A DNA stretch of 64,000 nucleotides, taken from NCBI GenBank assembly GCA_963666095.2, contig OY762557.1, positions 333,567-397,566 on the forward strand, in the 5' to 3' direction. Position 1 is the stretch's first letter. Every line of letters starts with the position of its first letter. A program made the position numbers and the translations under genes. This DNA is from Longimicrobiales bacterium (GTDB lineage Bacteria > Gemmatimonadota > Gemmatimonadetes > Longimicrobiales > Gaopeijiaceae). Below the pieces are notes generated by a model, which searched no databases, was not told the origin of the DNA, and saw only the letters and a list, made by a program, of their open reading frames with translations. Positions 11,680 through 63,624 of the stretch are shown one piece after another.

Positions 11680-13200
11680 ATGACCTCGCGCGTCGCCAGG
11701 GTCGCCATCGTCGGCGCCGGACCGGCGGGGTTCTTCGCGGCGGAGGCGCTGCTGAAGGGCGAGGGTCCGGTCGCAATCGACCTCGTCAACCGGCTGCCCG
11801 CGCCGTACGGACTGGTGCGCGACGGGGTGGCGCCCGACCACCAGGCCATCAAGTCGGTGGCGCGCGTGTACGCGAAGATCCTGGCCCGGGACGAGGTCCG
11901 CTACTTCGGCAACGTCACCCTCGGCGAGGACGTCACGGTCGACGATCTCCGCGCCCGCTACGACCAGATCGTCTACGCGGTGGGGGCGCAGAGCGACCGC
12001 CGCCTGAACATTCCCGGCGAGGATCTCCGTGAGAGCCACGCCGCGTTCGACTTCGTGGCCTGGTACAACGCCCACCCGGACTTCCGCGACCGGCGCTTCG
12101 ACCTGGACTGCGAGCACGTGGTGGTGGTCGGCAACGGGAACGTCGCGATCGACGTGGCCCGGATCCTGGTGCACTCGCCCGACCGCCTGGCCACCACCGA
12201 CATCGCGGACCACGCGCTGGAGGCGCTGCGCGGCAGCCGCGTCCGGCGGGTGACCCTGCTGGGCCGCCGCGGGCCCGCGCAGGCCTCGTTCACCAACCCC
12301 GAGCTGCGCGAGTTCGGGCGGCTGCCGGGGGTGTGCGCGGAGGTGGACGGCGCGGAGCTGGAGCTCGATGCGGCCGGAGAGGCGGCGCTGGAGGGCAATG
12401 CGGTCAGGACGCGCAACATGGCGACGCTTCGGGGCTATGCGGAAACGGGGTGCGAGGGCGGCGAAAGGGTGGTGCGGTTCCGGTTCCTGGTCTCGCCGGT
12501 CGAGGTGGTGGGCGAGGGGGGGCGGGTGACGGGGGTGCGGATCGAGAGGAACCGCCTGGTGGCGGGGGAGGACGGGTACATGCGGGCCGTGGGGACGGGG
12601 GAGACGGAGGTGGTGCCGTGCGGGATGGTGATCCGGTCGGTGGGATACCGGGGGGCGCCGCTGCCGGGCGTGCCGTTCGACGAGCGGCGCGGGATCGTGC
12701 CGAACGAGGGGGGGCGGGTGGTGGGGGGGGGGCGCGCGGGGGGGGCGGTCGTCGGCGGTGCGGCGGTCGCGGGCAGTGCGGCGGTCGAGGTGGTGGAGGC
12801 GGGAGACGGGATGGGCGGCGGGGAGGTCGTGCCGGGCGAGTACGTGGTCGGGTGGGCGAAGCGGGGGCCGTCGGGGGTGATCGGGACGAACAAGGCGGAC
12901 GCGGCGGCGACGGTGGCGTTGATGCGCGAGGATCTGGAGGCGGGGGTGGTGGCGGGCGGCGAGGGCGGGACGGGCGGGGTGCGGGGCGGCGGCGGGGAGG
13001 GGCGGCGGGGAGCGGGCGGGCGGGCGCGCGGGGCGGGCGACCTGGCCGAACTGCTGCGGGAGAGGGGGGTGCGGTGGGTGGACGGGGAGGGGTGGGGGCG
13101 GCTGGACGCGCGCGAGACCGCGCGGGGGAAGGCCCAGGGGAGGCCGCGGGTCAAGTTCTGCACGGTCGCGGAGATGCTGGAGGCGGCGGGGATGGGGTAG
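11680..13200 (+). CDS. FprA/adrenodoxin-reductase-type ferredoxin-NADP+ reductase
   Basis: ORF 11680..13200 has VAIVGAGPAGFFAA (FAD) and VVVVGNGNVAIDVAR (NADP) motifs. It contains two Gly-rich inserts. Confidence 0.8.
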   Translation: MTSRVARVAIVGAGPAGFFAAEALLKGEGPVAIDLVNRLPAPYGLVRDGVAPDHQAIKSVARVYAKILARDEVRYFGNVTLGEDVTVDDLRARYDQIVYAVGAQSDRRLNIPGEDLRESHAAFDFVAWYNAHPDFRDRRFDLDCEHVVVVGNGNVAIDVARILVHSPDRLATTDIADHALEALRGSRVRRVTLLGRRGPAQASFTNPELREFGRLPGVCAEVDGAELELDAAGEAALEGNAVRTRNMATLRGYAETGCEGGERVVRFRFLVSPVEVVGEGGRVTGVRIERNRLVAGEDGYMRAVGTGETEVVPCGMVIRSVGYRGAPLPGVPFDERRGIVPNEGGRVVGGGRAGGAVVGGAAVAGSAAVEVVEAGDGMGGGEVVPGEYVVGWAKRGPSGVIGTNKADAAATVALMREDLEAGVVAGGEGGTGGVRGGGGEGRRGAGGRARGAGDLAELLRERGVRWVDGEGWGRLDARETARGKAQGRPRVKFCTVAEMLEAAGMG

Positions 13201-16721: not shown

Positions 16722-17990
16722 CTACCTGTTCAGCCGGTACATCCGCACGTACTGGACGCCCAGCTCGTCCCTCCACACGCCGAGCACGTGGTCGTCCCCG
16801 ATCTCCATGTACGGGGCCTGGTACTGGACGAAGCCCCGCTCCAGCCCCGGCGGCAGCGCGACCGTACCCAGCCAGGTGCCGTCCGGGGCGAAGACCTCGA
16901 AGGGCGGAGGCTCGGCGCCGGCGATGTAGTACGGCGCCAGCCAGATGTTTCCGCCCGCGTCCACGTGCACGGAGCGCAGCACCGGGAGCGTCGGGGCCCT
17001 GGGGTATTCACGCCACATCCGCCTGACGAACTCGACCTGTTCCGCCGGTGCGCCGGCGCCGGCCACCATCCCCACGATGCCCTCGAGGTGAGCCTCGTAA
17101 ATGGCATCCGTCGCTTCAGGGGGCTCCACTTCCCTTCGGATGATTCGCTCGATCGACCCGTCCAGGGATGAGACAAGGCGCACCCGCCAGGCCTCGGTGT
17201 CGATGACGGCGACGGGTCCCGCCGCGGCCCCGACCACGGGCATGTTGCCGAACACGTAGAGGTCTTCGGAGAGCCTGCCGTCGTCGCGTCGCACCAACTC
17301 GACCTCCTCCCCGCCGACCACGACGAGCGACGCGGCGGAGCCGTCCCTCAGGTCGAGCGCCACCAGGCGATAGTCGACCCACCGCACCATGCCCGTGGTC
17401 GCTCGCCCGGGCAATTCGGCGAAACGGACGATAAGGCGGCCGTCCACGACGCCGACCGCGCGGTCCGGCGCAGACCCGCCGGGCGCGGCGACGTCGCTCG
17501 GAAGCTCGGCCCGAAGGGTGCGCGCCGGCCGCCCGTCCGGGTCGAAGACCTGGATTCGCATGAGCACCCAGTCGTAGGTCATCAGCGAATCGCCGGGCAT
17601 GGCGGCCACGAAGTCGAGGCTCTCGAACTCGCCCGGGCCCTCCCCTTCCCTGCCGGCGCCCCACAGGAAGGTCCCCTCGGCGTCGTACCGCCGCAGCTCG
17701 GCAGCGCCCTGGTCCGCGACCACGATGCCGCCGTCGCTCATGCGCGCCGCGGCGACGACGTTGGCGAACTGGTATTCCGGCGGGCCGTCGACGGCTCCGA
17801 TCTCGACGACCGGCTCCTCGTCCACGGTCCAGCCTTCGCCGGGGCCCCAGATCGGGGTCACGGCGGTGGCGATCTCGATGCCGGCCGAGTCGGTGTGCAC
17901 GGTGTGCACGACGTCGGGGGCGGATTCGCAGGCGGCGGCTGCGACGAGGACCCACGTCGCGGCCGCGCCGGCCGTTCGGGAGCGCCTCAC
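16722..17990 (-). CDS. 6-bladed beta-propeller family lipoprotein (paralogue 1)
   Basis: Tail of ORF 16722..20360. GTG 17990 overlaps the upstream TGA. It has the signal/lipobox WVLVAAAAC, the motif GREGEGPGEF and the C-terminus HVLGVWRDELGVQYVRMYRLNR. Confidence 0.75.
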   Translation of the reverse strand: MRRSRTAGAAATWVLVAAAACESAPDVVHTVHTDSAGIEIATAVTPIWGPGEGWTVDEEPVVEIGAVDGPPEYQFANVVAAARMSDGGIVVADQGAAELRRYDAEGTFLWGAGREGEGPGEFESLDFVAAMPGDSLMTYDWVLMRIQVFDPDGRPARTLRAELPSDVAAPGGSAPDRAVGVVDGRLIVRFAELPGRATTGMVRWVDYRLVALDLRDGSAASLVVVGGEEVELVRRDDGRLSEDLYVFGNMPVVGAAAGPVAVIDTEAWRVRLVSSLDGSIERIIRREVEPPEATDAIYEAHLEGIVGMVAGAGAPAEQVEFVRRMWREYPRAPTLPVLRSVHVDAGGNIWLAPYYIAGAEPPPFEVFAPDGTWLGTVALPPGLERGFVQYQAPYMEIGDDHVLGVWRDELGVQYVRMYRLNR

Positions 17991-35170: not shown

Positions 35171-35840
35171 GGGGAAGGACCGCGACGGCCCGACGCTCGG
35201 CTTCGCCCCCCGCCAGCTTCGCCGGGTTGTGCCACGCGACGCGCAGGCCGGCCGCGTGCGCCCCGACGACATCGAGGGGGGAGCCCGCGACGAACAGCAC
35301 CTCGTCGGGGTGTGCCCCCAGAGCTTCGACCCCCGCCGAGTAGATGCGCGGGTCCGGCTTGTAGCAACCGGCGGACTCGGCGGTAACGACTGCGCCGAAG
35401 GGGGCGCCCACCAAGGCGGCCGCCCGCCGGCCGAGCACCTCCGAGCAGTTGGTCACCACGCCCAGCGGGCCTTTCCGCGCCAGCTCTCGGAGCACCGATC
35501 CCGCCCCCGGCCAGGGCGCCAGCTCGTCCCAGCGGGCCTCGAGTTCGGCGGCCCGGGCAGCGGACAGTCCCACGGCCTCCGCCGAATCCGCCACGAGGTC
35601 CAGGTAGGGGACGTACGCGCCCGTGGCGTAGGAGCGCCTCAGGTATTCCATCCGCCACCGCCGCCCCGGCCCCTCTCCCCCGGCGACGTCGTCCCAGAGG
35701 GACCACGAGTCGAGCAAGGCCGAAAGGAGGTCGAAGAGCACGGCCCCGGCGGCCCGTGGACGAACGCCCCCCGGCGTTCGAGCGGCGACGCATCCGCGCC
35801 GGACCCTTCGAATCACCGGTTCGGGTTGCGAAGACGACAT
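35136..35840 (-). CDS. HAD-superfamily hydrolase (haloacid dehalogenase-like)
   Basis: Tail of ORF 35136..36395 with AVLFDLLSALLDSW (motif I region) and VVTNCS. The start is either ATG 35840 or GTG 35741, and I cannot resolve which. Confidence 0.65.
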   Translation of the reverse strand: MSSSQPEPVIRRVRRGCVAARTPGGVRPRAAGAVLFDLLSALLDSWSLWDDVAGGEGPGRRWRMEYLRRSYATGAYVPYLDLVADSAEAVGLSAARAAELEARWDELAPWPGAGSVLRELARKGPLGVVTNCSEVLGRRAAALVGAPFGAVVTAESAGCYKPDPRIYSAGVEALGAHPDEVLFVAGSPLDVVGAHAAGLRVAWHNPAKLAGGEAERRAVAVLPRLADLRTLLPA

Positions 35841-35925
35841 TCGGCCACACCCGAGACGCCTCCGCCTGGGCCTCGATCTCGACATTCGGCCACCTTCACG
35901 ACGCCTCCGCCTCGGCCTCGATCTC
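35836..35925. repeat. tandem 45-bp duplication that includes the 3' end of the AKR-RidA gene
   Basis: Unit A (35836-35880) is gacattcggccacacccgagacgcctccgcctgggcctcgatctc. Unit B (35881-35925) is gacattcggccaccttcacgacgcctccgcctcggcctcgatctc. Unit B holds the stop (35896-35898). Unit A holds the candidate HAD ATG (35840). Confidence 0.8.
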
Positions 35926-37422
35926 GACGAGCAGGTCCTCGCCGATCGTGTTGGCATGGACCAGGGTGTTGGCGGGGCGGACATGGGCGAAGCGAGCCCC
36001 GTGCGCCCGCGCGACCGGCTCCCAGTCGACCCCCTCGCGCACGTACACCCGGGTGCGCACCACGTCTTCGAGGGCGGCCCCCAGCGACTGGAGCGCCCCT
36101 TCGATCCTGTCGATGACGAAGTGGGTCTGCGCGGCCGGGTCGCGTCCCCCGATCGCGCGCCCGGCGTGGCTGGCCGTGGTCCCCGCCACATGGATCCGGC
36201 CGCCCCTGCGCACCGCGCGGCTGTACCCGGCCATCTCCTCCCACGGCGTCCCGCTGGAGACGAGTTCGGCCGGGCCCGAGCGCCGGACCGGGTAGGGCGC
36301 GGGGAGGTGCGCGAGGTGGTGGCTGAGGTCGCCCGAGGCGGTGAGGAAGGGGGGGCGGCGGTACTCGTCGCCGCAGTCCCCGGGGATCGGGTCAAGCGCC
36401 GCGCACGCCGCGTCCAGATCCCGCCGGGCCTCGTGATCGAGAGAGAAGCGGAAGAGGTTGAGATTGTCCTCGATGTGGCTCCGCTCCCCGAGCCGCGCCC
36501 CGACGACGATCGCGGCCACCGCCGGCTGATCGAGCACGAAGCGGCAGGCCACGTTGGCCATGGACACGCCCGCGGCGGATGCGGGGGCCCGGCGCTCGTC
36601 CCCCGACCCTGACGTTGTGCTGGGATTGTCTCCGTCCAGCCGCCGGGCCACCCGGGCCAGCGCCTCCAGCAGCCCCTGGAACCGGTCCCACCCCCCCGCC
36701 GCGTCGATGAACCGGCGGTACTTCATCTGCGACCAGGTCAGCGAGTCGTCGATCGGCGGCTCGGGCCGGCCCAGCCACCGTTCGCTCAGGAAGCCGCCGG
36801 CGAGCGTCCCGTAGGCCAGGAGGGCCACCCCGTGCCGAGTGCACACCTCGGTCATCGGGCCCGCCGCCCGCCTGTCCAGCAGCGAGCAGCAGACCTGGTT
36901 GGACACGATCGGCACCCCGCTGCGCACCGCCATGTCGAGGTGCACGGCGTCGCAGTTGGTCAGACCGAGATGGCGGATGCGGCCCGCCGCCCGGAGTTCG
37001 GCCAGCTCGAAGAGGCAGTCCAGCCAGCTCGGGTCTGCGTAGTTCCAGGCGTGGAACTGAAGGAGGTCGATCCGATCCGTCGCCAGGCGGTCGAGGGCTC
37101 GATCCACCGCCTCGGCCACCGTCCGCGGGTGGACGGGTCCCGGCTTCGGCACCCACTTGGTGAGGAGCTGGACATCGTCGCGGCGCGCCGCCAGTTCGCC
37201 GGCGATCAGCTCCGCCGAGCCGTAGTGGTCGGCCATGTCGAAGGTGGTCAGCCCCGCGTCGGCGTGGGGCTCCATGGCGCGGGCGGCGGCGACCGGATCG
37301 AGCGCCCGCCCGCCTCGCTCCTGGTCCGCGACCTGCCACATCCCCGTGACGATGCGGGAGATGCCGAGACCGGGGGCAACGTGGGCGCGCGGACTGCCCG
37401 CGAAGCCCGTCCCGGCCGTCAC
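35896..37422 (-). CDS. aldo/keto reductase fused to a C-terminal RidA/YjgF-like domain
   Basis: ORF 35896..37422. The N-terminal ~330 aa look AKR-like (FDMADHYG, IDLLQFHAW, GLTNCD). The C-terminal ~130 aa look RidA-like (YSRAVRRGGRIHVAGTTA..., RTRVYV...). Confidence 0.75.
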   Translation of the reverse strand: MTAGTGFAGSPRAHVAPGLGISRIVTGMWQVADQERGGRALDPVAAARAMEPHADAGLTTFDMADHYGSAELIAGELAARRDDVQLLTKWVPKPGPVHPRTVAEAVDRALDRLATDRIDLLQFHAWNYADPSWLDCLFELAELRAAGRIRHLGLTNCDAVHLDMAVRSGVPIVSNQVCCSLLDRRAAGPMTEVCTRHGVALLAYGTLAGGFLSERWLGRPEPPIDDSLTWSQMKYRRFIDAAGGWDRFQGLLEALARVARRLDGDNPSTTSGSGDERRAPASAAGVSMANVACRFVLDQPAVAAIVVGARLGERSHIEDNLNLFRFSLDHEARRDLDAACAALDPIPGDCGDEYRRPPFLTASGDLSHHLAHLPAPYPVRRSGPAELVSSGTPWEEMAGYSRAVRRGGRIHVAGTTASHAGRAIGGRDPAAQTHFVIDRIEGALQSLGAALEDVVRTRVYVREGVDWEPVARAHGARFAHVRPANTLVHANTIGEDLLVEIEAEAEAS

Positions 37423-57092: not shown

Positions 57093-58481
57093 ATGACAGA
57101 CCCGATCCGCCCCCGCATCCGTCGGGCCGCCCGCCTGTGGTTCGCGGCGCTGCTCGTCCTGACCGCCGCCCCCCTCCACGCCCAGACGCGCGACTACCGC
57201 CCCGAGCGCCCCTTCGGCACCCTGCGCGAACAGGCCCGCACGCAGCAGGCGTGGCTGAGGGAGCGGCTCGAGAGGAACCTGCCCATGCTGATGCGGAAGC
57301 ACGGCGTGGACATGTGGGTCGTCACCATGCGCGAGTACAACGAGGACCCCGTCTTCCGCGCCCTGGTGTCGCCGACCACCTTCGCCGCGCGGCGCCGCAC
57401 GATCTACATCTTCCACGATCGCGGTCCGCAGGACGGGGTCGAGCGGCTCGCGCTGGGCGGGTCCTCGCAGGGCGGCGTCTACGAGGCCGTGCGCGCCACC
57501 GTGCAGGCCCCCGACGGCCGCGCGGCGGAGCTCTGGGGCAAGGACCAGTGGAACCTGTTCGCGGACATGGTGCGCGAGCGCGACCCCGAGCGGATCGCGG
57601 TCAACATCTCCCACGACCACAACTTCGCGGACGGGCTGTCGGCGGGCGAGTGGGAACAGATGGAGGAGGCGCTGGGGCCGGAGCTGGCGGGGCGCGTGGT
57701 GCGTGAGCCGCTGCTCGCGATCGAGTACCTGGCCATGCGGGTGCCCGCCATGACCCCGGTCTACCGCAAGCTGCAGACGATCGTGCACGAGATCATCGCG
57801 ACGGCGTTCTCGGACGTGGTGATCGAGCCGGGCCGCACGACAACCGCCGACGTGGTGTGGTGGATGCGCCAGCGGGTGCACGACATGGGGCTGGGCTCGT
57901 GGTTCCAGCCGTCGGTGTCCGTGCAGCGGCGGGGCGCGTCCATGGCGGGAGTGGTCGCGCCGGTGATCGAGCGGGGCGACGTGCTGCACTGCGACTTCGG
58001 AATCGTGGCCCTGGGACTCGCCACCGACACGCAGCACATGGCCTACGTGCTGAGGGAGGGCGAGACGGAGGCGCCGGCCGGACTGCGCCGGGCGCTCGCC
58101 AACTCGAATCGGCTGCAGGACATCCTGCTGGAGGAGACGAAGGTGGGCCGCAGCGGAAACGAGATCCTGGCCATCGTGCTGGAGAGGATGAGGGCCGAGG
58201 GGCTGAACGGGACGATGTACACGCACCCCATCGGCGATCACGGTCACGGCGCCGGGCCGCTGATCGGCCTCTGGGACTACCAGACCGGCGTGCCGGGGCG
58301 GGGCGATCCCTTCGTGATCCCCAGCATGTGGTTCTCGACGGAACTGCAGGTCACGACTCCGGTGCCCGAGTGGGACGGCCAGCCGGTGCGCATGGCCCAG
58401 GAGGAGGAGGCCGAGATCACGGCGGACGGGGAGATCCGGTGGATGCTGAGGCGGCAGACGGAGCTGCACCTGGTGCGGTAG
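57093..58481 (+). CDS. secreted M24-family metallopeptidase (Xaa-Pro aminopeptidase-like)
   Basis: ORF 57093..58481 has the signal peptide LWFAALLVLTAAPLHAQ and metal-ligand regions HCDFG and HPIGDHGHG. Confidence 0.8.
   Translation: MTDPIRPRIRRAARLWFAALLVLTAAPLHAQTRDYRPERPFGTLREQARTQQAWLRERLERNLPMLMRKHGVDMWVVTMREYNEDPVFRALVSPTTFAARRRTIYIFHDRGPQDGVERLALGGSSQGGVYEAVRATVQAPDGRAAELWGKDQWNLFADMVRERDPERIAVNISHDHNFADGLSAGEWEQMEEALGPELAGRVVREPLLAIEYLAMRVPAMTPVYRKLQTIVHEIIATAFSDVVIEPGRTTTADVVWWMRQRVHDMGLGSWFQPSVSVQRRGASMAGVVAPVIERGDVLHCDFGIVALGLATDTQHMAYVLREGETEAPAGLRRALANSNRLQDILLEETKVGRSGNEILAIVLERMRAEGLNGTMYTHPIGDHGHGAGPLIGLWDYQTGVPGRGDPFVIPSMWFSTELQVTTPVPEWDGQPVRMAQEEEAEITADGEIRWMLRRQTELHLVR
58421..58473 (+). 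repeat. 53-bp direct repeat, left copy (inside the M24 gene 3' end)
   Basis: ggcggacggggagatccggtggatgctgaggcGgcagacggagctgcacctgg matches 61122-61174 at 52 of 53 positions. Confidence 0.9.
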
Positions 58482-58570
58482 CGGGAGGCCTGCGACGGGA
58501 ACCGGAAAGGTGATTCAGTCATAGTTCGGGGTTGTCGTAGGAGAAGTACTGCCAGGTCGGTGTCCGAGAG

Positions 58571-58599
58571 TTGACGGGTCGTGATCAGGACGCTATCGT
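58571..58599 (+). promoter_or_regulatory. candidate sigma70-like promoter TTGACG-N17-TATCGT
   Basis: TTGACG lies at 58571-58576 and TATCGT at 58594-58599. The predicted transcription start falls at about 58606, the first base of the 17-bp repeat array. Confidence 0.35.
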
Positions 58600-58606
58600 C
58601 CAACGA

Positions 58607-58657
58607 CCGCCTCCTGGGAGGAACCGCCTCCTGGGAGGAACCGCCTCCTGGGAGGAA
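58607..58657 (+). repeat. three perfect tandem 17-bp repeats (ccgcctcctgggaggaa), each with CCTCC..GGAGG
   Basis: The units lie at 58607-58623, 58624-58640 and 58641-58657. They end 14 nt before the real SD GGAGG (58672-58676) and ATG 58683. Confidence 0.9.
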
Positions 58658-58682
58658 TGAACTTCCACCCCGGAGGATCCAG

Positions 58683-59462
58683 ATGAACGATCACAAGACT
58701 GTCAGCCTCGGACGCATCCTCGCCTCCGCCGTGCTGTGCGTACTGGCCTTGGCCGTGGCCGTCGTCCCCGCAGACGAAACGCCCGCTCAGGTCTTCGCGG
58801 CCAGCGACCTCTCGCCGGCCAGCATGGAGGTCGCGACACCCGCGAGCCAGTTGATCGGAGCCAAGGCGGCAACCCCGGCCCGTCGGTTGCCGCCAACCCG
58901 GCCACTCGCGCCAGCGGGAATCATCGTCCGGCAGCCGACCGCCGGGCAGGTTGCCAGCGCCGGACAGGGCACCGTGGCCTCGGAGGGTGCCAGCGCAGGG
59001 TGCGGTTGGTGTTGGCATTTCAAGTCACTTCTCACGGGTACGTTTAGGCATGTTTTTCCCCGTGGCAATGACTCTTGCGGCTGGCCCCCGCCACCACCGT
59101 GGCATAGGTGCTCGCGTTGCGGGAGCGGATTGGGCTGCCACACGGTCGGGGATGATGGCTTCTGCCACATTCTATGCGGCCCCGCGGGCGGTGACCTTGC
59201 GCAGATCCTCGACGCGGCGCGGCGCGGCTTCGAAGCGCTTAGTGCGACCGTAGTTGCAGACGCTCTGTTGGCTGCGCCGGCCGGGATTCAAGTCGAGTAC
59301 GTCTCGGATGCCGGTCGCATTGACTTCATCCTTGAATGCGCACCTGGCGCGACCGCGGAGACCATCCCGGTCCCGCCCGGCGAGATGCGCGCCGCACTCG
59401 ATGCCGAACTCCGGATGCGGAAGGGCCCGCGACTTGTTGCCGCGCCCGCACCGCTTCCTTGA
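58683..59462 (+). CDS. hypothetical secreted or membrane-anchored Cys-rich protein
   Basis: ORF 58581..59462, trimmed to ATG 58683, which lies 6 nt after GGAGG. It has the signal/TM segment ILASAVLCVLALAVAVV and a Cys cluster: GCGWCWHF...DSCGW...HRCSRCGSGLGCH...GFCHILCGP. Confidence 0.65.
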   Translation: MNDHKTVSLGRILASAVLCVLALAVAVVPADETPAQVFAASDLSPASMEVATPASQLIGAKAATPARRLPPTRPLAPAGIIVRQPTAGQVASAGQGTVASEGASAGCGWCWHFKSLLTGTFRHVFPRGNDSCGWPPPPPWHRCSRCGSGLGCHTVGDDGFCHILCGPAGGDLAQILDAARRGFEALSATVVADALLAAPAGIQVEYVSDAGRIDFILECAPGATAETIPVPPGEMRAALDAELRMRKGPRLVAAPAPLP

Positions 59463-60910
59463 GGGACGACGCCGCGGGACCCGGCTTCCGTAGCAGCGGA
59501 TCGTCTCTGCCGGTCCCCTTCTCCGCCGGCGCGCTGCTTCTCGCCGTCCTGGCGGCCGCCGCCTGCGACCGTCCACCGTCCGAATCTAACCCGGCAGCCC
59601 CAAATGGTGCCGCCGATCCACCCTTCACTGTGCGGGACTCGGCGGGAGTCGAGATCGTCGTCAACAACGTTCCCGAGCATCCGCAGGGACAGTTCTGGAG
59701 CTTCGATCCGGAGCCCACGTTCGTTCTGGGAGGGGCCCGGACGAGTCTCGTTGCGGACGACCTCCGCGACACCGGTTCCGAAGACCGCGCTCTAGGCACC
59801 GTCTGGGGAGTAGTCGGCCTTGCCCGGCTGGTGGACGGAAGAATCGCCGTCCTCTCTTCGGAGAACGGCCAGCTCTATCTCTTCGAACCCTCGGGAGAGC
59901 TGTCCAGGACAATCGGAGGGAGAGGACGCGGTCCCGGCGAGTTCTCCCGCCCGGTACATCTCCGGTACGCTCCTCCGGACACGCTGGTGGTGTGGGATCA
60001 GTGGTTCGGACCGGTCACGCGCTTCGACACGACCGGTGCGGTTCTGGAGCGGAGAACGATCGATCTCGGACTGGCCCTGGAACGACTGCCGAGCCAGGCG
60101 ACCTGGGAGGAGCTGACCCACCCCCTGCCTGACGGGTCGCTGATGGTGGAGGTCGATCTCCGCGATTCCGATCTTGAACGACCCGCCGACAACGAGATGA
60201 TCAGGCATCCGCCGGTGGAGTACGTGCGTCTGGACCATGCCCACGAGACCGGCTCCTTCGGGACGTGGAAGGGTCCGGAACGCTGGGCCGTGCCGGAGGA
60301 CGTGGGCCGTGCCGCGGCCAACGCAAGTCCTTTCGCCAACCACTTTCTGGCGGCCGAAGAACACCTTGTTCACACTGGCGGAGTGTCTTCGAGCATCGCC
60401 GCGGGAGGGCGTCCCGCACGGGTCTACCTCAGCCACGGAGACACGAACGAGATTCGTCAGTATTCCCTTGACGGAACGCTCGTTCGCGTGATCCGCCGCA
60501 CGACCCGTCCGATACCGGTGACCGCGAGCGCGCACCGGGCGCGGCTGAACGAAGGCGCCAGATTCATGGTTGCGGTGAACAACGGCTTCGATTGGATCCG
60601 ACCGTTTCTGCTGTCGATGCCCCGATCCGAGTCCTACCCCCCGGTCCACAGTCTCTTCGTGGATGCCGACGGCCGCCTGTGGGTCAGAGAGTGGTCCGAC
60701 AGCGAGACAGGAGTGCCCGACCGATGGAGCGTCTTCAGCCCCGAGGGAAGGTGGTTGGGCGTTCTCGACGGACTGCCGGCGAGTTCCACCGGGACGTCGG
60801 ACCTTGCGTTCATGTCGGACATCCGGATCGGAAGGGAGTTCCTCCTGGCCGTGAGACTCGACACTATGGGCGTCGAGCGGGTGGAGGGCTACAGGATTCG
60901 CCGCAATTGA
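59459..60910 (+). CDS. 6-bladed beta-propeller family lipoprotein (paralogue 4)
   Basis: ORF 59336..60910. TTG 59459 overlaps the upstream TGA (TTGA). It has the lipobox LLLAVLAAAAC, the motif GGRGRGPGEF, DADGRLWVREW and the C-terminus MGVERVEGYRIRRN. Confidence 0.7.
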   Translation: MRDDAAGPGFRSSGSSLPVPFSAGALLLAVLAAAACDRPPSESNPAAPNGAADPPFTVRDSAGVEIVVNNVPEHPQGQFWSFDPEPTFVLGGARTSLVADDLRDTGSEDRALGTVWGVVGLARLVDGRIAVLSSENGQLYLFEPSGELSRTIGGRGRGPGEFSRPVHLRYAPPDTLVVWDQWFGPVTRFDTTGAVLERRTIDLGLALERLPSQATWEELTHPLPDGSLMVEVDLRDSDLERPADNEMIRHPPVEYVRLDHAHETGSFGTWKGPERWAVPEDVGRAAANASPFANHFLAAEEHLVHTGGVSSSIAAGGRPARVYLSHGDTNEIRQYSLDGTLVRVIRRTTRPIPVTASAHRARLNEGARFMVAVNNGFDWIRPFLLSMPRSESYPPVHSLFVDADGRLWVREWSDSETGVPDRWSVFSPEGRWLGVLDGLPASSTGTSDLAFMSDIRIGREFLLAVRLDTMGVERVEGYRIRRN

Positions 60911-60983
60911 CTCTTGGCCCCGATGACCCCGCATCCCTGGGGCGGGAACGTGGATGATGCGGCCAGTGCGAGGAGACCTGCAG

Positions 60984-61094
60984 GAATGGAAGCGATGGAA
61001 GGGGGATGGTATGGGATGCCATATGATGCAGCCATATGTATGGCATGGCCGATCCCCCTGCCAAGCTAGGCTAGGCTATAGGCTAGGCCAGGCC
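60984..61094. repeat. cluster of short repeats: ATGGAAG repeats, an 8-bp-arm palindrome and a TAGGC pentanucleotide tract
   Basis: aatggaagcgatggaagg lies at ~60984-61002. ATGCCATA (61016-61023) pairs with TATGGCAT (61039-61046). gctaggctaggctataggctaggccaggcc lies at ~61065-61094. Confidence 0.7.
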
Positions 61095-61121
61095 CCGGAA
61101 CAGGTGCGCGCCACTGCGGGC

Positions 61122-61174
61122 GGCGGACGGGGAGATCCGGTGGATGCTGAGGCTGCAGACGGAGCTGCACCTGG
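61122..61174 (+). repeat. 53-bp direct repeat, right copy
   Basis: ggcggacggggagatccggtggatgctgaggcTgcagacggagctgcacctgg differs from 58421-58473 at one position. Confidence 0.9.
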
Positions 61175-61342
61175 CAGCCCGTGGACAAAACCCTCCCGGC
61201 ATTCGAGCGGCGATGCATCCGTGCTGGACCGCTTCGCTCGCGTCATCACGATGTCAACTCTACTTTACATTTTGTCATGTTTACCATACTCTGAACCCGC
61301 TCGCGGCTCCGCTCTGCGTTGCTCCTTGGACGAATAGCCCTG

Positions 61343-62281
61343 CTATTCGCCCGTCGTCGCGCCTTGCCAGCCCGGCGCCTCGCCGCTCTCGGTGCTCGGG
61401 CGGCTGTATCCACGGACTGCTGGTGAGGTAGCGGAGGCGGGAAAGGGGCTTGCCTCCCCACGCCGCAGGACAACACCATCGAAATCCTGAACCGGTGCAC
61501 CGGGCGGTCCCGGGAAAGGCCTGCGCTTCGGGTAGGGCTGCTGCTCCCCTGACAAAAGGTCTCGGGCATCCTCCTGGATCCTTTGGATGAATCCAGAGCC
61601 CGGACCCAGGAGGTCGACCACTGCGGCACGGTCGTTCACAAGCATCGCCACCATGTCCAGAAGCGCCGGGTCGGCCAGCCCCACCGAGAGGTGCATCGCG
61701 CCCAATACCACACGCCAATGCTGCCGCCCGGTCAGGCACCGGCGCGCGACCTCGACAACCTCGGGCATGTCCTCCTCCGAGACCGTTCCGTCCTCGACCA
61801 TGAACCGCAACGCCAGCAGACTCATGCGGACGTCGCGGTAGTCCTCGGTATTCGCGGCCTCCAGGACTGCGGGAAACGCTGCGGCGCCCAGATCGGCGAG
61901 CGCGTTCGCGGCCGCGGCGCCGTGCCTCATGACGGTTATCAGGAATGGGATGGCCGCGGGATCCCTGAGCCCGGCCACCGCATGGAAATAGTCGAACAGG
62001 TACTCGTCGTGCTCGGCGCCGCCTGGAAGCGGGCGATTCGTCTCTCCGCGCAGCTCCGCCCAGGCCACCCGGATAACAGCGGCCCGCAGCTCCGGCCCCG
62101 CACGCCAGCCCAGCTTCATGGCCAGGTTCACGGTGCGGTCACGCACCACCGGGTCGTCGGACCCGAGCGCCGTCACCATCTCGGCCTCGGTCATGGTAGG
62201 CGGCACCTGTCCCTTGACTCCGTAGGGAAACGCGAGCGCGAGAAACCACACGGTCAGCGCGACATGTTTCGTCTTTCTCAC
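61343..62281 (-). CDS. hypothetical secreted protein, possibly HEAT/armadillo-like helical repeats
   Basis: ORF 61343..62281 (GTG start) has the signal peptide HVALTVWFLALAFPYGVKGQ and helical-repeat-like segments (DPVVRDRTV, LRDPAAIPFLI). Confidence 0.6.
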   Translation of the reverse strand: MRKTKHVALTVWFLALAFPYGVKGQVPPTMTEAEMVTALGSDDPVVRDRTVNLAMKLGWRAGPELRAAVIRVAWAELRGETNRPLPGGAEHDEYLFDYFHAVAGLRDPAAIPFLITVMRHGAAAANALADLGAAAFPAVLEAANTEDYRDVRMSLLALRFMVEDGTVSEEDMPEVVEVARRCLTGRQHWRVVLGAMHLSVGLADPALLDMVAMLVNDRAAVVDLLGPGSGFIQRIQEDARDLLSGEQQPYPKRRPFPGPPGAPVQDFDGVVLRRGEASPFPASATSPAVRGYSRPSTESGEAPGWQGATTGE

Positions 62282-62409
62282 TATCCTGACTCACCTCCAG
62301 TCAATGTGATACCAGCCGGAATACTCCTTCGACAAGCCAGGATTCGCAAATTCCGCAGCCTCCGCGAAGATGGCTCTTGCGGCCGCGATGTGGACGACGG
62401 GGTCGGAGA

Positions 62410-62680
62410 CACGATGCTCATCAGCTCCCCCGGATGGCCCTCCGCCTTGCCGCGCTTGCGGTAGAGCGCCAGGAGCTCGTCGCCGGAGACCTCGTCGGCG
62501 GGCATCGAGGTCAGCAGCCAGAAAAACGCGGGATGAGTTCGCCGGGCCACTCGACGACCACCTGCACGACCCGGCGGGGACGGGACCACGACCCGGCCCG
62601 GTAGGTCTCCTCGCGGAACCAAGCGCGGGCCAGTCCATCGCCTCGTAGAACTCCTCTGCCGTCGCGTCCGCCACGCCCAG
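62410..62680 (-). mobile_element. frameshifted remnant of a DDE transposase (IS1380/IS4-like C-terminal region)
   Basis: Two adjacent minus-strand frames carry the fragments. One reads ...YRAGSWSRPRRVVQVVVEWPGELIPRF (62514-62618). The other reads FFWLLTSMPADEVSGDELLALYRKRGKAEGHPGELMS (62416-62532). No intact ORF or terminal repeats were found. Confidence 0.45.
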
Positions 62681-62787
62681 CGTGTCGGAGTTCAGGCCGC
62701 GGGCCGCGGCGAGCTTCGAGCGGGGGTCCTTTGCGCCGGAACCCTGGCAACCTTACTGTCAATTGTCCTACCACCTCCCCGCGCGCC

Positions 62788-63624
62788 ATGTCAAGACTCC
62801 ATCTCGCCCTCGCGGCGACCGTCGCCGTCGCCCCAGGTCTGGCGGCCCCCGACCCCGCCGCCTCCCAGGTCCCCCTCGGCCTCCGCACCGCAAGCGGCCT
62901 GACCGTCACCCCGGTCTACGAAGGCTGGTACGAGAACCCCGACGGCACCTTCAGCCTCTCCTTCGGCTACTACAACCGGAACTTCGAGGAGATCGTCGAA
63001 CTGCCGCACGGCGCCGCCAACCACCTGGAGCCCGCGGACTACGACGGCGCCCAGCCCACGCGCTTCCACCCGAGGCGGCACTGGGGCGTCTTCGCGGTCA
63101 AGGTCCCCGCCGACTTCGGCGACCGGGCCGTCGTGTGGACCATCGACTTCCGCGGCGAGCGCTACGCGATCCCGGGAACCCTCCACGTGGACTGGCAGAT
63201 CGACGCGCTGGAGGGCGAGGCGGGGTCGGGCAACACGCCGCCGGTCCTGTCCTTCGACGAGGGCGCGACGGAGGGGGCCGGTCCGGCCGGTACCTGGGGC
63301 GGACCGATGGAAGCCAGGGCGGGGATGCCCGTGGAGCTGACCGTTTGGGGAAGCGACGACGGGCGGGTGCGCGTCGGGAGGCGCCCGCAGTCGGCGGTGG
63401 CCCTGCGGTGGTTCAAGCACCTGGGGCCCGGCGACGTCGTCTTCAGCGAGGAAAGCGGCGAGGTGCCGGTCGACGGCGGGGCCATGACGGCCATGGCCAC
63501 CTTCGAGGTGCCCGGCGAGTACGTGGTTCGCGTTCGCGCGAACGACTCGTCCGGCGTCTCGAGCGGGGGACACGCCCAGTGCTGCTGGACCAACGGATTC
63601 TTGAGAGTCAACGTCGTTCACTGA
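62788..63624 (+). CDS. hypothetical secreted protein
   Basis: ORF 62731..63624, trimmed to ATG 62788 (MSRLHLALAATVAVAPGLAAP). Composition is balanced and I recognise no family. Confidence 0.65.
   Translation: MSRLHLALAATVAVAPGLAAPDPAASQVPLGLRTASGLTVTPVYEGWYENPDGTFSLSFGYYNRNFEEIVELPHGAANHLEPADYDGAQPTRFHPRRHWGVFAVKVPADFGDRAVVWTIDFRGERYAIPGTLHVDWQIDALEGEAGSGNTPPVLSFDEGATEGAGPAGTWGGPMEARAGMPVELTVWGSDDGRVRVGRRPQSAVALRWFKHLGPGDVVFSEESGEVPVDGGAMTAMATFEVPGEYVVRVRANDSSGVSSGGHAQCCWTNGFLRVNVVH

Follow-up and report, generated by a model that had tools for sequence, protein, structure and literature searches.

A 64,000-nucleotide stretch of contig OY762557.1 from a Longimicrobiales bacterium, hereafter the window, carries the 3′ end of an M24 metallopeptidase gene twice. 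The two copies, rep1 at the gene itself and rep2 further downstream, bracket a cassette of two open reading frames (ORFs), one for a secreted Cys/His-rich protein (ORFA) and one for a β-propeller protein (ORFB). The evidence speaks for a recombination scar at a small variable locus of the replacement type rather than for an islet made by an integrase. On balance, we lean towards a recombination-driven insertion-duplication that displaced an older allele of the locus; rep2 would be the eroded head of that allele, and not the border of a self-mobile element. An earlier, sequence-only reading had taken the two copies for attL and attR of a site-specific integration. Part of its basis held: the 3′-end duplication is linked to an insertion, empty sites exist, the composition is atypical, and the module has moved. 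The rest did not: no integrase, no native flank at the distal copy and no recurrence of the att site were found.

The relatives' loci or contigs used for comparison are numbered L001-L094. Positions in M24 are counted back from the last base of the stop codon, which is -1. Coordinates are collected in Table 1.

The repeated M24 end in the window and in relatives

The repeat had been described as 53 bp with one mismatch. It proved real and extends to 54 nt, with 53 of 54 positions identical and the mismatch being CGG versus CTG. A search of the window allowing up to three mismatches returned the two copies and nothing else, and two such matches occurred in none of 100 dinucleotide-shuffled sequences. 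Rep1 is in frame with M24, and its last base lies 8 nt short of the end of the stop codon. M24 orthologues in Palauibacter/Longimicrobiales metagenome-assembled genomes (MAGs) share 84-94% amino acid identity. Their C-termini all read ...RRQTELHL[VI]R*, and the gene ends in ...CTGGT[GC][CA]G[GC]TAG in all relatives. Rep1 is followed by TGCGGTAG, as in relatives; the ancestral ending ...GTGCGGTAG thus adjoins rep1 and not rep2. Rep2 is flanked by non-M24 sequence on both sides, and its 3′ side consists of CAGCCCGTGG and a second repeat (repeat E) instead of TGCGGTAG. A clean integration and a target-site duplication are both disfavoured, because the native continuation would follow the distal copy and here it follows rep1.

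The DNA between the copies was less GC-rich than the whole window (65.8% versus 71.6%), as the sequence-only reading had noted. GC content at third codon positions (GC3) was low in ORFA (0.73) and ORFB (0.76) and 0.96 in M24. The effect is not confined to the bracketed stretch, since reduced GC extends beyond it to about 62.7 kb.

A second M24-tail copy is present in both L085 and L086, assembled from separate sequencing runs. It follows directly after a shared junction, J, in the form ...GGAATGGAAGCGAT/CACGGCGGACGG (GGAATGGAAGCGAT/CACGG). In the window, a 124-nt insert is wedged at this join, which L085 and L086 show intact. The second copy of L085 (2772-2824) covers M24 -67 to -15 and is identical to its own rep1 at 46 of 53 positions. 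Seven codons differ, five of them synonymously; of these changes, two lie in rep1. On its 3′ side lie 35 nt that correspond to nt 1224-1258 of prop′, the propeller gene of L087, followed by prop′ nt 1573-1878 with an in-frame stop. These fragments are collinear with the intact L087 locus and in the same orientation. Because of this collinearity with an intact L087-type locus, the second copy in L085 appears to be the head of a displaced older allele, a once longer duplicate (M24 tail, leader, ORFA′, prop′) that was probably trimmed by deletions. Rep2 is likewise read as the eroded head of a displaced second copy of the locus.

No second M24-tail copy was found in L081 or L082, and the trace of prop′ in L081 is limited to its last ~22 nt. 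The M24 end was detectable in 82 of 86 loci of relatives, and of these only L085 had a second M24 tail. A dedicated look at L003, L051 and L062 found none, and L090 had no direct repeat. The sequence GGAGCGGCGCACCTGGGGGGTAG, which stands before the native intergenic region in L081, L085 and L087, was tried as an older M24-tail copy and rejected (p ~0.45-0.6 against shuffles); in L087 it is the 3′ end of prop′.

Two positions vary among M24 alleles, and at both of them the downstream copy matches its own rep1: G and G in the window, C and C in L085. Together with the identity of 53/54 in the window versus 87% in L085, this suggests gene conversion between rep1 and rep2.

The sequence-only reading had seen no integrase between the repeats, and our scans agreed. 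No recombinase or integrase domain was found in ORFA, ORFB, the HEAT-repeat gene or the insertion sequence (IS) remnant to their right, nor in nine scanned ORFs at 40-57 kb. Gene calls of the cassette-bearing and other contigs L081-L094 contained no recombinase. No tRNA genes were found in the window. Rfam gave no match at the gathering threshold over the whole window, nor at E ≤ 1 over 58.4-62.8 kb.

Turnover of gene sets between the M24 and PKD-like genes

M24 relatives at 84-94% amino acid identity were all from Gemmatimonadota, in the Longimicrobiales/Ca. Palauibacter group (PMC10469786), and many were sponge-derived. The islet proposed earlier called for empty sites, and these were found: in L001, L010 and L015, M24 is followed by the PKD-like gene, with 129, 154 and 109 nt, respectively, between the M24 stop and the PKD-like start. 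The window exceeds these empty relatives by 4.3 kb (58482-62787), not by 2.65 kb. The insertion is composite, consisting of ORFA-ORFB, then an inverted HEAT-repeat gene, then an IS4 remnant. At least six allele types occur between M24 and the PKD-like gene, the empty one included, with at least five other gene sets (Table 1). In addition, L003 and L002 have a homologous minus-strand propeller just downstream of M24. As relatives carry many different gene sets at this spot, the stretch is a replacement hot-spot in Palauibacter-like sponge symbionts, at which secreted and lipoprotein gene sets vary by lineage.

The order M24-ORFA-ORFB-PKD was also present in contigs from other samples, with nucleotide identities of 82-93.5% in L081-L086. 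For L081/L082, identity to the window was 89% in M24, 82% in the cassette and 89% in the PKD-like gene; for L085 and L086, it was 92% and 93.5%, respectively. The cassette is old at the M24 site, because it is found there in relatives at these identities. The closest relatives all have some cassette, and empty sites occur only in more distant ones. The sequence-only reading had held that relatives sharing the arrangement, with no empty site among them, would speak against integration; this pattern holds among the closest relatives only.

From M24 to the end of ORFB (left of 2762, at J), L085 shares 92% identity with the window, against about 82% at the start of the PKD-like gene. The locus is therefore a mosaic, with breakpoints at or near the junction.

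ORFA showed a second discontinuity. Window positions 58634-58918 (leader and codons 1-~80) are 86% identical at the nucleotide level to L087, whereas the sequence from 58934 on (codons ~85-259) is 79% identical to L089, which has another genomic context. ORFA is thus a chimera, in which the 5′ untranslated region and codons 1-~80 would be of the locus-resident type and codons ~85-259 of the incoming type. In L089, ORFA-ORFB follows a DksA-like gene, not M24. ORFB is 85% identical to L093/L094, also in the DksA context, and 83.5% identical to L092, where it follows two xanthine/uracil permease genes. These values from unrelated contexts are on a par with the identity of the window to L081 at the M24 locus, which shows that the module has relocated. 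No direct repeats were found around the module in L089, L092 and L093, no M24 fragment was found at the other loci, and gene calls showed no recombinase within 10 kb of the module there. IMG/VR viral contigs contained no ORFA relative and no M24-tail pattern.

L093/L094 (9668-10001) were also compared with L089 (262-1541). ORFA is cleanly missing in L093/L094, where its ribosome-binding site (GAAGGAGGAATCC) runs straight into the TTG start codon of ORFB; L089 has both genes.

We infer the following order of events. The ancestor of the window, L085 and L086 lineages would have had a locus with an L087-like ORFA′-prop′ pair. The incoming DNA, the C-terminal part of ORFA plus ORFB, would have come from another locus or genome by recombination, with no dedicated integrase; this module also exists beside the DksA-like gene or the permease gene. 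The left join would have used homology in the M24 tail, the leader and the ORFA N-terminus. The right join would have been illegitimate, at J (window 60996), upstream of M24 -67. A circularised fragment entering by a single Campbell-type crossover would be an equivalent route. The product would read M24 - leader - ORFA - ORFB - J - (M24 -67 to stop - leader - ORFA′ - prop′) - PKD, the part in parentheses being the displaced copy.

This copy would then decay by deletions. In L085, M24 -67 to -15 and two prop′ fragments would remain. In the window, M24 -62 to -9 (rep2) would remain, and the sequence on its right would have been replaced by repeat E, the inverted HEAT-repeat gene and the IS4 remnant. 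In L081, the second M24-tail copy would have been lost by deletion or would never have been there. Later gene conversion between the copies would account for the 53/54 identity in the window. Two marks of displacement were observed: in L085, a second anchor copy heads an allele collinear with L087, and a chimeric gene, ORFA, stands at the homologous join.

Several points weigh against displacement. The left crossover is not locatable, as the L085 contig begins 254 nt into M24 and identity is uninformative. The direction of the chimerism is ambiguous, and L087 could be the recombinant. L081 has no rep2, so the repeat was possibly gained later rather than lost from an ancestral state. The displaced allele is wholly gone to the right of rep2 in the window, and the model leans on the L085/L086 junction being shared by descent. 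The difference between 53/54 (window) and 46/53 (L085) demands an extra assumption, gene conversion. Finally, three independent breakpoints fall within ~15 nt of the M24 end near the CACCTGGTG palindrome, for which a site-specific enzyme is the more natural explanation.

Other explanations for the repeat

The best surviving rival is integrase-mediated, site-specific integration, which we consider unlikely. The M24 3′ end would be attB, rep1 and rep2 would be attL and attR, and an integrase-less islet would have been stacked by a recombinase acting in trans, in the manner of a cis-mobilizable element (CIME). This would explain why a gene 3′-end direct repeat brackets DNA of atypical composition while empty sites exist elsewhere, and the mobility of the module agrees with it. 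Tandem accretion predicts the order seen in L085 (new cassette, M24-tail copy, older cassette), and breakpoints are clustered at M24 -22 to -9, beside the CACCTGGTG palindrome. The window, L085 and L086 also have the same left junction, but common descent accounts for it. No integrase was found in the cassette-bearing contigs, within 10 kb of the module elsewhere or in the nine 40-57 kb ORFs, and viral contigs yielded nothing. Copies of the module at other loci lack flanking repeats and an M24 fragment. Five other allele types at the M24 locus have no second M24 tail, so the att site was not reused by other cargo. The ancestral gene end stands after rep1 and not after rep2, leaving the distal copy with no native flank, and the ORFA chimerism indicates homologous exchange inside the cassette.

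Rep2 could also be templated filler, copied from nearby DNA during error-prone repair or template switching (microhomology-mediated break-induced replication, fork stalling and template switching, or end-joining), and never part of a longer duplication. It has foreign flanks on both sides: the 124-nt stretch of stuttered motifs on one, and on the other the 54-nt patch E, which was copied from a locus 25 kb away or is related to it. The 35-nt prop′ patch beside the second copy in L085 and a 45-nt tandem duplication of another gene 3′ end at 35.8 kb also fit such a process. However, the L085 pieces are collinear and in the same orientation as the L087 locus, and deletions from a long copy fit them better than several patches. 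Rep2 was kept at the same junction in three lineages. E and rep2 are 87% and 98% identical to their partners, respectively, indicating that they are not the products of one event. Templated filler is therefore quite unlikely in our judgement.

A further idea enlarges on site-specific integration, and we give it little credence. The last ~70 nt of M24 around CACCTGGTG would be a dedicated attachment site, at which a recombinase encoded elsewhere inserts, stacks and swaps small integrase-less secreted/lipoprotein cassettes in Palauibacterales sponge symbionts. If true, this would be a new system, a cassette-exchange system for cell-surface factors that resembles integrons or CIME accretion and is aimed at the 3′ end of a protein gene.

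That rep2 is functional is very improbable. It could, for example, specify an antisense RNA, read on the minus strand from near the E/HEAT 3′ region, against the 3′ end of the M24 mRNA, with selection keeping the identity. The identity of 53/54 in the window despite an old junction, and the position of E at its other locus just upstream of a minus-strand gene start, are in line with this. Yet the copy in L085/L086 drifted to 87% and is truncated, L081 has no copy, Rfam gave no match, no minus-strand promoter or terminator was called there, and folding of the region was unremarkable (z = -1.3).

An assembly artefact (a chimeric join or a collapsed repeat), which the sequence-only reading had itself raised, is scarcely credible: the source contig is metagenome-derived (4.9 Mb) and the region right of rep2 matches no relative, but the second M24 tail recurs independently at this junction in L085 and L086, two assemblies from separate runs, synteny with relatives holds on either side of the 4.3-kb region, and long-read assembly would not be misled by a repeat of only 54 nt.

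Three further classes were considered and rejected. A target-site duplication of a transposon or IS does not fit a repeat of 54 nt, which is not 2-15 bp; no terminal inverted repeats were found at 58474 or 61120, and the IS4 remnant lies outside. Simple Campbell integration with a native flank after rep2 was rejected, since the ancestral VR* ending follows rep1. For an integron gene cassette, no integrase was found, and orthologous cassettes lack the hairpin at 61003-61065, which is specific to the window.

Among known systems, the closest parallel to displacement is in type VI secretion system (T6SS) effector-immunity arrays of Vibrio cholerae and in orphan 3′ modules of Rhs and contact-dependent inhibition (CDI) loci, where sequential displacement has been attributed to homology-facilitated illegitimate recombination (PMC5361080; see also PMC3240628). 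As in the T6SS/Rhs cases, a conserved upstream anchor is joined to a variable downstream module, with many alleles and no integrase. The incoming module pushes the resident one downstream to decay, and pieces of the conserved region remain before the displaced module. Here, however, the anchor combines the tail of a housekeeping peptidase with the leader and N-terminal part of a small secreted protein. A Cys-rich protein and a β-propeller lipoprotein make up the cargo, no toxin-immunity logic was seen, and there is one displaced remnant, not an array.

Campbell-type insertion-duplication is the single-crossover integration of a circular molecule with a homologous segment. It likewise leaves the homologous segment directly duplicated on either side of the insert, is reversible via the copies and needs only RecA. 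It differs in that the circular intermediate is hypothetical here, and the original duplication, which may have been ~0.5 kb, is now 54 nt.

Elements that target gene 3′ ends include e14 and phage 21 in icd, and ICESt1 and ICESt3 in fda. Integrative elements at protein-gene 3′ ends supply a replacement 3′ end, and integrase-less CIMEs are stacked by accretion (PMC5704250, PMC7563491). Shared with them are the duplication of the target 3′ end at both borders with the gene left intact, the tandem stacking with an internal att-like copy, and derivatives some of which are integrase-less. Unlike them, the present locus had no integrase or relaxase partner in the contigs examined, its att does not recur with other cargo, its distal copy has no native flank, and its cassette is chimeric with the resident allele.

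In replacement-type flexible genomic islands, variable gene sets between core genes are exchanged by homologous recombination in the flanks. The M24-PKD locus resembles them in that M24 and PKD flank it as conserved genes, its contents come in at least six versions among close relatives, its identity is mosaic and its cargo has lower GC3. It is very small in comparison (0-4.3 kb), and has a partial duplication that such islands usually lack.

The cassette genes and the DNA to their right

Table 1. Features of the M24-PKD region in the window and allele types in relatives
Feature	Position in window, or locus	Strand	Basis and remarks
M24 metallopeptidase gene	57093-58481	+	PF00557, E = 1.6e-12; conserved left anchor of the variable locus
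rep1	58420-58473	+	Native M24 3′ end, -62 to -9; ancestral context on both sides
Promoter-like site TTGACG-17-TATCGT	58571-58599	+	Predicted; part of the ORFA leader
3 × 17-bp units	58606-58657	+	With the promoter-like site, the ORFA regulatory leader (58571-58657)
ORFA	58683-59462	+	Secreted Cys/His-rich protein, 259 aa, signal peptide
ORFB	59459-60910	+	483 aa; PF17170 (DUF5128) six-bladed β-propeller; start TTG 59459
Conserved tail after ORFB	60911-60996	+	Alignment; ends at shared junction J (...GGAATGGAAGCGAT)
Window-specific 124-nt insert	60997-61120	+	Stuttered short motifs, long imperfect hairpin; between J and rep2
rep2	61121-61174	+	Ectopic copy of M24 -62 to -9; 53/54 versus rep1
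Repeat E	61177-61230	+	54 nt; partner 35752-35805; 47/54 identical, 0 expected by chance
Degenerate third M24-end copy (~-38 to +8), tentative	61393-61438	+	Local alignment score 19, p ~0.03 in a 525-nt target
HEAT-repeat signal-peptide protein gene	61343-62281	-	PF13646 match below cut-off; last ~50 codons read-through
IS4-family DDE transposase remnant, frameshifted	62281-62700	-	Weak NF033592 match; YREK-like motif LYRKRGKAEGHPGEL
Native M24-PKD intergenic resumption and PKD-like gene	62729; gene 62788-63624	+	Conserved right anchor
Allele: empty	L001, L010, L015		
Allele: 402-aa propeller	L090/L091 (M24 94% aa)	-	Coding sequence ends 3 nt past the M24 stop
Allele: two tandem propeller genes	L062		
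Allele: gene X and HEAT-repeat gene	L051	+	
Allele: divergent ORFA′ and different propeller prop′	L087		
Allele: ORFA-ORFB	Window, L081-L086		

All cassette contents listed by the sequence-only reading, from the promoter-like element and the 17-bp array to the Cys-rich secreted protein, the coupled propeller lipoprotein and the odd short repeats, were present. The leader of ORFA is conserved: the promoter and exactly three 17-nt units are kept in L081-L083 and L085, and one unit is present in L086 and L087, at cut contig starts. Folding of the leader RNA (58600-58700) gave -42.9 kcal/mol (z = -3.97). In the predicted fold, units 1 and 2 form a 12-bp hairpin, and CCUCC of unit 3 pairs with the Shine-Dalgarno sequence GGAGG. 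This pairing suggests that ORFA may be under translational control.

ORFA has the conserved pattern GCGWC...H..FPRG.DSC...C.RCGSG.GCH...CHI.CGPAGGD. It is rare, with nine homologues among 5.8 billion proteins, and had no match in Pfam, NCBIfam or PDB sequences. Its AlphaFold 2 model was poor (predicted local distance difference test score 47), and Foldseek found no match below E = 1. A metagenome scan for ORFA relatives gave 600 spurious pattern matches and no relatives; a degenerate DNA pattern for CHI.CGPAGGDL gave 0 matches in metagenome data.

The start of ORFB overlaps the ORFA stop by 4 nt (TTGA), as it does in the gene calls of L085 and L086, and its translation is probably coupled to that of ORFA. 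With a lipobox-like motif, LAAAAC, ORFB is a probable lipoprotein. More than 250 homologues of its PF17170 propeller family were found at E < 1e-60, the majority from Gemmatimonadota MAGs. Further paralogues occur in the window on the minus strand at 16725-17975 and ~25.6-25.9 kb, and possibly at ~33.0-34.2 kb. The number of homologues and the paralogues inside one 64-kb stretch suggest a large lineage-specific expansion.

The 124-nt insert is of low complexity, with stuttered ATGG... and GCTAGG... motifs. It contains an imperfect inverted repeat of ~25 bp (GGGGGATGG..ATGCCATA / TATGGCAT..GATCCCCC), which forms the hairpin mentioned above. L085, L086 and L081 do not have it at the orthologous position, and no further copy was found in the window or the loci.

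Repeat E starts 2 nt (CA) after rep2 and is followed by an AT-rich stretch. Its partner lies just upstream of the start of a minus-strand HAD-type hydrolase gene. It may be a dispersed repeat, a captured fragment or a regulatory motif. Near the partner, at 35836-35925, a 45-nt tandem duplication takes in the stop codon of a minus-strand gene (35896-37422) together with the 27 nt before it and 15 nt of 3′ flank, another case of a duplicated gene 3′ end in the same genome.

The candidate third M24-end copy is not significant once the whole 4.3 kb is scanned. A 95-codon ORF (61144-61431) in the M24 frame begins inside rep2 and stops at TAG (61429-61431). It ends in ...GLLVR*, compared with ...LHLVR* in M24, a resemblance that may be fortuitous or may stem from a further M24-end copy at 61393-61438.

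The HEAT-repeat gene shares 41% amino acid identity with the HEAT-repeat protein of L051 over 61520-62257, and is inverted relative to L051, where the gene is on the plus strand. A remnant of gene X of L051 was sought upstream of it and rejected, as only the ...HIDWR* ending was shared and BLAST gave no support. The degraded DDE transposase noticed by the sequence-only reading is an IS4-type remnant at ~62.3-62.7 kb, 1.1 kb outside the repeat copies. Homology to L081, L085, L086 and L087 resumes at 62729.

In L062 (10921-12500), an intact IS splits M24 at about codon 335. It encodes a 451-aa transposase with DUF772 and DDE_Tnp_1/DDE_Tnp_1_6 domains, and the displaced 3′ part of M24 ends normally at 12912. 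A relationship between this IS and the IS4 remnant of the window was considered and rejected, the two being unrelated.

A direct repeat of a gene 3′ end is by itself insufficient evidence of an integrase-made island, and pipelines that find islets by such repeats would misfile this locus. The locus is a clear case of turnover of small accessory gene sets between two core genes in uncultured sponge symbionts, with no visible mobile-element machinery. Its cargo, a rare Cys/His-rich protein and a PF17170 propeller behind a conserved structured leader, is a candidate host-interaction or envelope module.

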